Made by a program: the position numbers
NCBI RefSeq assembly: GCF_054482595.1
Contig: NZ_CM137008.1
Length of the DNA stretch: 64,000 bases
Strand: one strand, 5' to 3'
Shown here: positions 38,601 through 41,600 of the stretch, piece after piece
Layout of the letters: each line of letters starts with the position of its first letter
How positions within the stretch are numbered: the first letter of the stretch is position 1

Positions 38601-41600
38601 GGCGGGAATCCCCCACTGTGCATAGGCAACTCACGCTATGAACGCTTCAGCTTATCAATAGCGGAAGTTATAATTTCATTGTCATCAAACTTGTACAACA
38701 TAGTATCTAAAACAGGAAGTAGCGTTTTATCACCTAATTCACCCGCAGCTTCAATGATATCATCATAAACAGTATTTTTTTTTAACTCATCGCATAAAAC
38801 AGATAAAACCCTTTTATCTTTTCTGTAGGAAAGTCAGATTATTGCTTCAATACGGACTTCCTCATTTTTATCCTGAAGCATCTCCACAAAATAATCCCTA
38901 ATATCACTATTATCATATTTATTGATATTTATTGCAAATGCGGCCCAGTTTCTGACATCTCCATTTGGATCTTTTAACAGATTAATCAATAGTGGAATTG
39001 TTGCTTTATCATTGATAACAGAAATAGCAAATGCTGTAGCACGTCTGACATTAGTCGATTTATCAAAAGCAGTAATTTGAGATTGTTCTACTATTTTAGG
39101 TGAATAATTTGGGTTTTTCTTGCATCGCTGAGCCGTTGACTCGATTGCCGTAGCTCGAACGCAAGCGCTCTTATCATTCAATGCCATATTGTTCAAAATA
39201 TTAAAAACATTATCTTCGCATTTTTTGCAAATTTTTATTTGCCCGAGTATAAATGCTCCGATATCTCTACGGATATAATTTTTATCAGAGCAGAACTCAA
39301 TTGCCAATCTAACAGCGTCTTGCCCACCTCTTAACTGTAATACTCTGGCAGATGAAATCCTTTTCAAGGAATTGTGATCATCAAGTAAGCGAAATAATTC
39401 ATCATCATTTAGTTTCTTACATTGATTATATAAACCATACTCTTTACTTGCCTTTCTTTTCTGGTATGTATTTGACATTGCAGGAACCTCCACAAAGGCT
39501 ATCTTTTTTTATCGTTTGACTGTCTGGAGTCCTCCACCTACTCTGCCATCAGCGCACACGATGTTTGATTATCCTTACATACTTATTTTCCGTGGCCAAA
39601 ATTCAGAATTCTCCCATCATTTTTGCCTATTTCTATAATAAAAACCCCACCAGCAATTTGGTCTGAGTGAATGGTACCTTCAACAACCCAACTTGTTGTT
39701 AACTCAGTGATTTCGTATGGTTTTTCTTCTTCTGCGGCATCCTGTCCATAACGATTCTTAACATATATCTCAGCTAATTCCAATGCTATAGCTTTATTTT
39801 TAACCAAATTTCTAACGGTATATTTACCTTCACTTTCATACTTGCGCATTATTTTAATATTATTATTACACTGCGCCCATGTGTTGTATGTAAAAACAAA
39901 CAAAGATACAATGACACATTTCCTAAACAATATTTTTTTACATATTACCATGAACTCTGCAGACATTAGGTAATCCTTTTCCGTTTGTTATTTCCTTCCC
40001 GTGGTTATCTATTGCTTTAAAATTACCACTGGGCGTACCTAAATAAAATGACTTGATATTGTTATCTTTACTTTTAACTATTTTCTCATCTTTACCTGAA
40101 AATATTTCGTCCCAATATTCTCCATGACTATCTGCACCATGAGTATGATAAGCTGATACTTTCTCAGTACCATTAGGGCAAGGGCTATTGAATGGATATG
40201 ATCCTTTTCTTTCTCCTCGGTTAGGTGCTGTTGAGAAATATCTGCCACTATTATCCTTACATATTAAACCAGCGAACTCTTTATCTTCGCAAATAGATTG
40301 GCTATTTATTTTATTTAAGGCGTCATATGCGGTGCTATCTATAGAATCAAATTTATCTGGACCTATCATAGCGGATAGTGTGCCGCAAAGACCATTAGTA
40401 CATGCCCCCGATTTTGCATCCTCCCACATAGATAAACCCAGGGGGTCGATGTCTGATATCGGATTCAATTGATATCCATACAGGTTCCATCCCCCCTTCA
40501 GCCCAATCGGATCCTGAGTGATATACCTCCCCTGCAGCGGGTCATAATAGCGGTGGCGGTTGTAATACAGGCCGGACTCCTCATCATACTGCTGACCCGG
40601 CAGGCGGATGAGCTGCTGCAGCTGGTGCGGGTTCTCTTCATTCAGCAGGTTGCCCCATTCATCGTATTCTGCGCACCATTCTGTAGCCCCTTCCGTGCTG
40701 ATAAGCGCCAGCGGCAGGCCGCGATGGTCGCAGTGGTACAGGTGGATTTTTCGCGCCGGCGTGTACACCGGGTCCATCTGGTTTTGCATCTGCTCCACCG
40801 TCAGGCCGCACGATGCCAGCCAGCGGCGGCTTTCCTCACTCACCCGGTCAGCCAGGATTTCACTTTCCAGCCGGTCGAGCATCTGCACCAGCACCGGCGG
40901 GAACACCACACTGCCACCGTCTTCGCCGCCGGACTGCTGAAGGGCATCCGCCAGGCTGCGGCGCTGCGTTTTCGCCAGCTCACCGGTGGCAGTTTCGACC
41001 CTGATGAGTGGCGTGAAGCTCCCCGGCTGATAAATCGTCTGGATGCGGCTCCTGTCGTTCTGTATCGTGGTCAGCCGGTCGCCGTCCCAGCCGTACCAGG
41101 TCACTTGCGGTTTCCGTGACAGCGACATCCAGCCCGTCAGGTCCCGTTCACGCCGCCACACCCGTTTTGCCACCCTGCGGCCCAGCGGGTCGTAAAGATA
41201 GCGACTTTCGACCAGCGGCTCTGCATATTGTGTCCGCGTGTAGTGCACCAGCCGGTGCTGACTGTCGTAATGGTACCGGTGGGTGCGCTCATCATCCGTG
41301 CGGATAACCCCTTCCGGGATGAGGTCGGTTTTCTCCGTCAGCCTGCCGTGACGGTCATACCGGTAAAGATAGTGCGCGTCACGGGCGATACGGTTATCCG
41401 GCCACATGCTGAGGGCGCTGTCCGGGTGCAGCTCCGGGTCGGGCAGGCGGTTACCTGCCGGGTCTGTGGCATACGGGATATCAATGCCCAGGTTACATAT
41501 AATAATAAGAGCAATTAACTTAATTTATTTGTTTATAATGCGCTTACTTAATACAAACCATTGAATATACCCTCCTGACAGAAAATAAAGCCATATTATT

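Follow-up and report, generated by a model that had tools for sequence, protein, structure and literature searches.

Identity of the orphan cassette

Which toxin does an orphan Rhs cassette encode when it lies behind a complete rhs gene, and how did it come to lie there? This question is raised by a locus on contig NZ_CM137008.1 (assembly GCF_054482595.1), of which a stretch of 64,000 nucleotides (nt), hereafter the window, was analysed. The cassette consists of a Rhs core fragment fused to a variable C-terminal (CT) toxin tip and of a small open reading frame (ORF) that overlaps the end of the toxin. An earlier note on this DNA had called the tip unique and unassigned. We found instead that the tip belongs to a described toxin family and that the cassette is already known: it is RhsB-CT (Tox-JAB-2/DUF4329) with YhhH (Imm-NTF2-2) behind an RhsC-type tip, and it is annotated in public genomes. 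In identity and origin it is almost certainly a displaced ('orphan') RhsB-type toxin-immunity cassette, and the account of identity, origin and general role taken together is very probably correct.

The window covers the yibF-yibH/mtlA locus, where E. coli K-12 carries rhsA. On the minus strand, the full-length rhs gene is followed by a ybfB-type gene and, directly after it, by the orphan frame. The cassette and the two genes in front of it have the following features:

41851..46035, minus strand: full-length rhs gene (1,394 amino acids) with an RhsC-type tip, at the yibF-yibH ('rhsA') locus
41525..41851, minus strand: ybfB-type gene for a small membrane protein (108 amino acids), presumed immunity gene for the attached RhsC-type tip
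39938..41524, minus strand: orphan Rhs reading frame, with its first ATG at 41407 (M of LSMWPDN; 489-amino-acid ORF) and without a PAAR/N-terminal region
40443..41479, minus strand: Rhs core repeat, with its homologue in the full-length gene at 42314-43350; substrate for recombination between main gene and orphan
40433..40447, minus strand: second DPxGL motif (DPLGL), the boundary of core and variable tip and the expected autoproteolytic release site
39941..40432, minus strand: toxin tip of RhsB-CT type (164 amino acids), with the DUF4329/Tox-JAB-2 domain at 39986-40336
40279-40277 (E), 40147-40145 (H), 40141-40139 (H), 40099-40097 (S) and 40090-40088 (D), minus strand: codons of the catalytic motif of the tip
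39583..39966, minus strand: yhhH-type immunity gene (127 amino acids), assigned by Pfam match and by 126/127 identity to K-12 YhhH
39966-39874, minus strand: predicted Sec signal peptide of YhhH (residues 1-31), with cleavage at ...NTWA/Q
39789-39586, minus strand: Imm-NTF2-2 domain of YhhH (residues 60-127)

The small gene upstream ends in TAA at 41527-41525. The very next codon, at 41524, opens the Rhs frame, which continues as far as its stop codon (39940-39938). No coding sequence for an N-terminal delivery region was found upstream of the orphan core fragment. The GC content was 61% in the core and 35% in the tip and immunity gene; plus-strand ORFs within the GC-rich core (e.g. 40469-41119) were taken as composition artefacts. 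The features of the cassette are not due to chance, because the same DNA recurs at ≥99% identity in thousands of genomes.

In a BLASTN comparison, the orphan and the full-length gene shared one block of 1,037 nt (96.1% identity, 40 mismatches, no gaps; 340 of 349 amino acids), corresponding to positions 2686-3722 of the main gene. The 164 codons past DPLGL matched nothing in the main rhs gene. The earlier description thus held for an orphan toxin-immunity cassette downstream of a full-length rhs gene, for a core of about 1 kb fused to a tip rich in Cys, Gly and His (6, 18 and 5 residues in 164, respectively), and for a frame that opens on the codon after the preceding stop. It had also called the core near-identical to rhsA from the LSMWPDN region onwards; the homology stands, but at 96.1% the wording is slightly generous, and the repeat begins 24 codons upstream of ATG 41407.

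The tip matched Pfam DUF4329 over model positions 2-112 of 116 (E=1.4e-38), and a whole-library phmmer search gave 756 cluster representatives of DUF4329 relatives at E≤0.001. Compared with K-12 RhsB-CT, 163 of the 164 residues are identical, the sole change being G151R. DUF4329 corresponds to Tox-JAB-2, for which conserved E, H[ST]H, S and D residues, an RHS N-terminal context and an immunity partner listed as 'Imm-NTF2 family 2' were described by Zhang et al. 2012 (PMC3482391). The window pair agrees with that description in its full-length domain matches, its E, H[ST]H, S, D motif, its RHS context and the listed pairing. PDB sequence searches with the tip and YhhH gave nothing meaningful (best InlC, E=0.9), so neither DUF4329 nor Imm-NTF2-2 has a solved structure; NCBIfam held no model for the tip, YhhH or YbfB. 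The missing PDB match and NCBIfam model are what a novel toxin of no known family would give, but the DUF4329 match, its many relatives, the name Tox-JAB-2 in use since 2012 and the K-12 counterpart refute that explanation, to which we assign a negligible chance. Both proteins of the cassette match described families, neither of which is biochemically characterised.

The 127-amino-acid ORF adjoins the 3' end of the Tox-JAB-2 toxin and runs over the toxin stop, with an overlap of 29 nt if ATG 39966 is the start and of 14 nt if ATG 39951 is. Its N-terminus is hydrophobic; both points had been reported before. It matched Imm-NTF2-2 (PF15631, 'NTF2 fold immunity protein') over model positions 1-68 of 68 (E=3.4e-26), is named yhhH by the Prokaryotic Genome Annotation Pipeline (PGAP) and differs from K-12 YhhH in one residue of 127 (K16N). 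The ORF thus corresponds to YhhH, an Imm-NTF2-2 protein, and from the gene order we infer that it would neutralise the toxin. Its N-terminus is composed of a basic n-region (KK..RK), a hydrophobic core and a c-region reading NTWA/Q. Homologues retain this layout even at 65% identity, at which level their c-region is NGWA/N or D.

On a Joint Genome Institute (JGI) metagenome contig (3300033980), a Rhs toxin whose DUF4329 domain is 43% identical to the tip is followed by an Imm-NTF2-2 protein that has a classical signal peptide (L005, 114-3184). The family was recorded as 'E. coli only' in 2012 (PMC3482391), whereas here it was also found beside a DUF4329 Rhs toxin on this non-E. coli contig. 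In E. coli GCA_045584835.1, at the nikR-rhsB locus (L011, 1808-6384), a chimeric 127-amino-acid protein (P0126) consists of YbfB residues 1-29 fused to the part of YhhH that begins with 'WAQC', and it directly follows a 1,397-amino-acid Rhs protein without DUF4329. P0126 looks like a recombination product in which two immunity genes were joined and the RhsB-type tip was removed.

Origin of the displaced arrangement

Over 868 nt, the DNA of the tip and ORF is 99.8% identical to the 3' end of K-12 rhsB with yhhH. Both loci have the 29-nt overlap and a yibA-like HEAT-repeat remnant after yhhH. In K-12, however, the tip sits on a full-length Rhs protein of 1,411 amino acids at the nikR-yhhJ locus, whereas in the window it is detached, lies at the yibF-yibH ('rhsA') locus and stands behind an RhsC-type tip and ybfB. 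Where the pair was checked in other genomes, it was syntenic with rhsB/yhhH.

The tip/immunity DNA was present in 3,007 of 5,426 complete E. coli genomes, always on the chromosome. With a chimeric query, in which the RhsC-type tip/ybfB was joined to the window tip/yhhH, the exact order RhsC-tip/ybfB/orphan/yhhH was detected in 24 of the 5,426 genomes, 13 of them 100% identical to the query. In these 24 genomes the tip occurs once only, as the orphan. A query limited to the junction of the ybfB 3' end and the orphan start was tried and set aside as not discriminating. This junction (window 41380-41640, minus strand) is conserved in 2,655 genomes because the ordinary rhsC-ybfB-ybfO locus has the same one. 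On this comparison, the window locus looks like rhsC-locus DNA (tip, ybfB and orphan start) spliced onto rhsB-type DNA (tip, yhhH and yibA') within the orphan core.

Two strains were informative about the locus. Strain XH990 is 100% identical over the cassette, and PGAP lists there a full-length rhsC, ybfB, 'rhsB, incomplete, missing N-terminus', yhhH and yibA with an internal stop, followed by a partial RHS core fragment, an Imm57 family immunity protein, yibH, yibI and mtlA. Strain PS10-3 carries at the same yibF-yibH locus a single rhs gene of 4,236 nt that ends in the tip of the window and is followed by yhhH, a yibA pseudogene, a core fragment and Imm57; its downstream 2.9 kb are 99.8% identical to the window. 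The attached and the detached state of one tip thus coexist at the yibF-yibH locus within the species.

Attached and detached states were the basis of the C-terminal displacement model for Rhs tips of Jackson et al. 2009 (PMC2935791). The strain comparison suggests the same course here: the rhs gene at yibF-yibH would once have ended in the tip of the window, as it still does in PS10-3, until a segment of about 1 kb of core with the RhsC-type tip and ybfB recombined into the core and shunted the old tip and yhhH downstream. Such a displacement would have left an N-terminally truncated frame without start signals of its own. The cassette shares with published displaced Rhs tips (PMC2935791) and with the Salmonella rhs orphans a core fragment of the same clade, a DPxGL motif, a tip of low GC content and an immunity ORF; in all of them a full-length gene precedes the orphan, other strains carry the tip in attached form, and re-attachment by homologous recombination is possible. 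No structural difference from these systems was found.

At the 40 sites that separate the main and orphan cores, PS10-3 (L003, 5278-9513) and K-12 rhsB (L002, 3278-7513) are made up of alternating blocks of main and orphan alleles. This mosaic shows that gene conversion among rhs cores is patchy and ongoing.

The longest mismatch-free runs in the core repeat are about 140 nt, which is ample for RecA. The silent tip would then serve as a reserve: a RecA-dependent crossover in the 1,037-bp core repeat would re-attach it to a delivery-competent Rhs body and would delete about 1.87 kb, comprising the RhsC-type tip and ybfB. The earlier note had proposed that a single recombination could promote the tip; the repeat, its identical runs and the attached tip of PS10-3 bear this out. 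The idea is sound, but it is textbook behaviour of rhs orphans. Re-attachment of Salmonella orphans by recombination is summarised in PMC7043789 (citing Koskiniemi 2014), according to which the main immunity gene is lost in such events, and selection acts against them except where a duplication has come first. The gene yhhH itself may be kept because RhsB-type toxins are carried by many E. coli, against which it would protect.

It is also conceivable that the toxin part is a decaying relic that is never re-used, and that selection acts on yhhH alone, as an orphan immunity gene. PGAP marks the fragment as a pseudogene, the adjoining yibA and the second orphan show decay or are incomplete, databases contain many DUF4329 entries that are truncated or fused to IS1, and the 24 genomes with the arrangement hold no other copy of the tip. 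However, all 164 codons of the tip can still be read through, no catalytic residue is missing, a single substitution separates the tip from that of K-12 RhsB, 13 genomes are fully identical across the chimeric query, the core repeat retains its long runs of perfect identity, and both states of the tip exist at the locus. We therefore regard a relic as unlikely and a displaced cassette that can be re-attached as the better explanation.

Two observations concern the 3' flank. In K-12, yibA is the gene beside the rhsA tip, and the yibA pseudogene in the window has no matching toxin tip upstream. The junction of yhhH with the HEAT-repeat remnant also occurs in the K-12 rhsB locus (L002, 7973-8323), just before an ISEc1 element. 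Because this junction is shared, it suggests that the 3' flank of K-12 rhsB originated as a copy of an arrangement such as that of the window.

Predicted fold and motif of the toxin tip

Tip residues are numbered from IDPLGL. In alignments of 57 and 142 non-redundant DUF4329 members, S52, E58, H102, H104, S118 and D121 were invariant or at least 99% conserved, and all of them are present in the window tip; E58, H102-T-H104, S118 and D121 were invariant in the 57-sequence alignment. The AlphaFold2 model of the tip had a pLDDT (predicted local distance difference test) of 93.2 and a pTM (predicted template modelling score) of 0.87. The fold comparison gave the following values:

Pyrococcus JAMM1: 8.2
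BRCC36: 8.0
AfJAMM: 8.0
Peptidase Cap3 of the cyclic-oligonucleotide-based antiphage signalling system (CBASS): 7.6
Sst2: 7.4
RadC: 7.2
Rpn11 homologue: 7.2

The model supports a JAB/MPN (deaminase-like alpha+beta) fold with an intact metal/catalytic motif. The predicted architecture of the tip is that of a JAMM/MPN-fold metal-dependent hydrolase in which the E...H-T-H...S-x-x-D motif is preserved. Compared with the JAMM/MPN+ metalloproteases (Pyrococcus JAMM1, AfJAMM, Rpn11, AMSH/Sst2, BRCC36 and CBASS Cap3), sequence identity is only 11-20%, the spacing from HxH to S is 13 residues in the tip, and the tip adds an N-terminal helical extension with CxxxxC as well as paired cysteines. Furthermore, no ubiquitin-like substrate is expected in the bacterial periplasm.

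Expression of the orphan

The orphan lacks its own start signals and is classed by PGAP as a pseudogene. Starsta et al. 2020 (PMC7043789) showed for main as well as orphan rhs genes of S. Typhimurium that internal P2 promoters, toxic internal ORFs and toxin-immunity binding exist. Within the conserved core, the P2-type promoter was located about 89 nt upstream of PxxxxDPxGL, and P2-like sequences were reported in E. coli with a cut-off of ≥80% identity (PMC7043789). The corresponding features in the window were the following:

40499..40606, minus strand: putative Salmonella P2-like stretch, 77/108 identical to the P2 query of PMC7043789, ending at DPIGL
40513-40499, minus strand: first DPxGL motif (DPIGL)

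On the Salmonella precedent and the homologous 108 nt at 40606-40499, the orphan might not be silent; an internal core promoter just upstream of DPxGL could drive it as an addiction or growth-control module inside the producer, similar to a type II toxin-antitoxin (TA) system. Internal expression was demonstrated for the Salmonella orphans, whereas the P2 homologue in the window is only 71% identical, below the published cut-off. The same 108 nt are also found in the main gene and in the second orphan. A consensus promoter and terminator scan over 37000-46500 did not exceed the shuffled expectation (17 promoters against 13.3 ± 3.1, and 10 terminators against 9.5) and gave no site at the P2-homologous stretch. 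Between the P2-like region and DPLGL, no in-frame ATG with a recognisable Shine-Dalgarno sequence was seen by eye, and an immunity protein with a signal peptide and a disulfide-rich toxin fit an intracellular TA pair poorly. TA-like internal expression is possible but unsupported, and such a module is distinctly improbable. Two sites with 10 of 12 matches inside ybfB (41625-41598 and 41637-41609) were also considered; they were rejected as evidence for an orphan promoter because the scan count was not above the shuffled expectation.

Site of action of the toxin

The role of the DPxGL motif in Rhs proteins is established in the literature (PMC7043789, PMC8636562). If the tip is re-attached and delivered, the toxin would be released at DPLGL and would act in the target periplasm as a Zn hydrolase with disulfide bonds, probably either a peptidase or an amidase, while YhhH, exported by means of its signal peptide, would bind the toxin there and so neutralise it. 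We give this periplasmic step even chances of being right.

The proteins downstream of divergent DUF4329 toxins were sampled for comparison. A signal peptide or lipobox was found at four loci: L004 encodes a YbbC-like protein that starts with MKYSSIFSMLSFFILFAC and is lipobox-like, L005 and L006 encode proteins with classical signal peptides, that of L005 being itself an Imm-NTF2-2 protein on the non-E. coli metagenome contig, and L010 has a lipobox-like ...LIWSC.

Across the DUF4329 family, the six cysteines of the tip behave as three pairs, the members of which are present or absent together. C17 and C22 occurred together in 11 sequences, and in none did only one of them occur. C64 and C91 were both present in 62 sequences, both absent in 62 and discordant in 17 (Fisher p of about 1e-23, uncorrected for phylogeny). 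All sequences that contain C54 and are complete at the C-terminus also have a Cys near that end. Because YhhH and several of the homologues' immunity proteins carry signal peptides and the tip has three co-varying cysteine pairs, these sequence features suggest that the toxin acts in the periplasm and not as the "RNase" of the literature. This reading is put forward here for the first time.

Zhang et al. 2012 (PMC3482391) predicted nuclease action for Tox-JAB-2, and the in-silico type VI secretion system (T6SS) literature labels DUF4329 a nuclease or RNase. According to that label, the tip would act in the cytoplasm and YhhH would neutralise it there. The exported immunity proteins and paired cysteines argue instead for periplasmic action: with signal peptides or a lipobox on YhhH, the YbbC-like protein and three other downstream proteins, a cytoplasmic antidote would be removed from the cytoplasm, and the cysteine pairs suggest disulfides. 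Moreover, the nuclease label is itself predicted; the experiments of Ma et al. 2017 were confined to CT1, CT3 and CT5, none of which is DUF4329 (per the review PMC6730261). We consider a cytoplasmic nuclease somewhat unlikely. That the enterobacterial RhsB-CT/Tox-JAB-2 toxins in general are periplasmic, disulfide-stabilised JAMM-type metallohydrolases and not RNases, neutralised by exported NTF2-fold YhhH/YbbC, is a tentative proposal to which we give slightly less than even chances; their substrate could be, for example, an isopeptide-like envelope bond such as a peptidoglycan cross-link or the Lpp-peptidoglycan link.

Several points weigh against the reading of a displaced cassette with a periplasmic toxin. 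Published in-silico work labels DUF4329 a nuclease/RNase, and a literature search on RhsB/YhhH, RhsD/YbbC and JAB toxins returned in-silico surveys only and no experimental work. At three of the eight sampled loci (L007, L008 and L009) the downstream protein has no signal peptide; these loci are non-enteric, with SpvB/Tc-like or cadherin-repeat contexts, and the ORF of L007 is doubtful and looks spurious. Signal peptides were judged by sequence features and hydrophobicity and not with a dedicated predictor, and the statistics on cysteine co-variation ignore phylogeny. With respect to origin, the two states of the tip do not fix the direction, which may have been an insertion that displaced the tip or a deletion that re-attached it in PS10-3. 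The 4% divergence of the cores will reduce the rate of recombination. Finally, the N-terminus of the full-length gene matched DUF6531 (E=3.2e-17) but PAAR_motif only weakly and partially (E=0.11 over 18 residues), and the delivery route of the attached form is unproven from the window, in which T6SS genes were not sought.

Neighbouring toxins

Downstream of yhhH, the locus contains the following features:

38834..39493, minus strand: yibA (HEAT-repeat) remnant, a pseudogene with an internal stop according to PGAP, matching NCBIfam NF007244 over profile positions 1-216 of 285
37701-38594, minus strand: further orphan Rhs fragment with a Tlde1-domain tip, within the context block 37174..38594
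37174-37695, minus strand: Imm57-family gene, after the Tlde1-tip orphan

The Tlde1 tip matched PF10908 (E=4.3e-7). The PGAP annotation of XH990 and PS10-3 covers the core part of this orphan but not its tip. The product of the Imm57-family gene named by PGAP has an N-terminus that looks like a signal peptide.

The Cys-rich RhsC-type tip on the full-length gene (41851-42330, minus strand) had no Pfam match even at E≤10, and its neighbour YbfB (41525-41851, minus strand) is a small, very hydrophobic protein. The RhsC-type tip is the genuinely unassigned toxin of the locus.

Significance

The cassette is of little consequence in itself: it pairs the K-12 RhsB tip with YhhH at a displaced site, and this arrangement is annotated in 24 complete genomes and accounted for by the 2009 model. 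For the strain, it would mean that immunity is kept to a toxin type carried by about half of the sequenced E. coli, and that a silent toxin is held which could be re-armed by one crossover. The wider value lies in the "RNase" label of DUF4329, which is in-silico in the literature found and conflicts with exported immunity proteins and paired cysteines. What remains new is the biochemistry of the DUF4329 toxin family, where the evidence argues against the customary label. If the periplasmic reading is true, two E. coli K-12 genes whose function is unknown would be assigned one for the first time, and this toxin would be the first JAB-fold antibacterial effector that targets the envelope.

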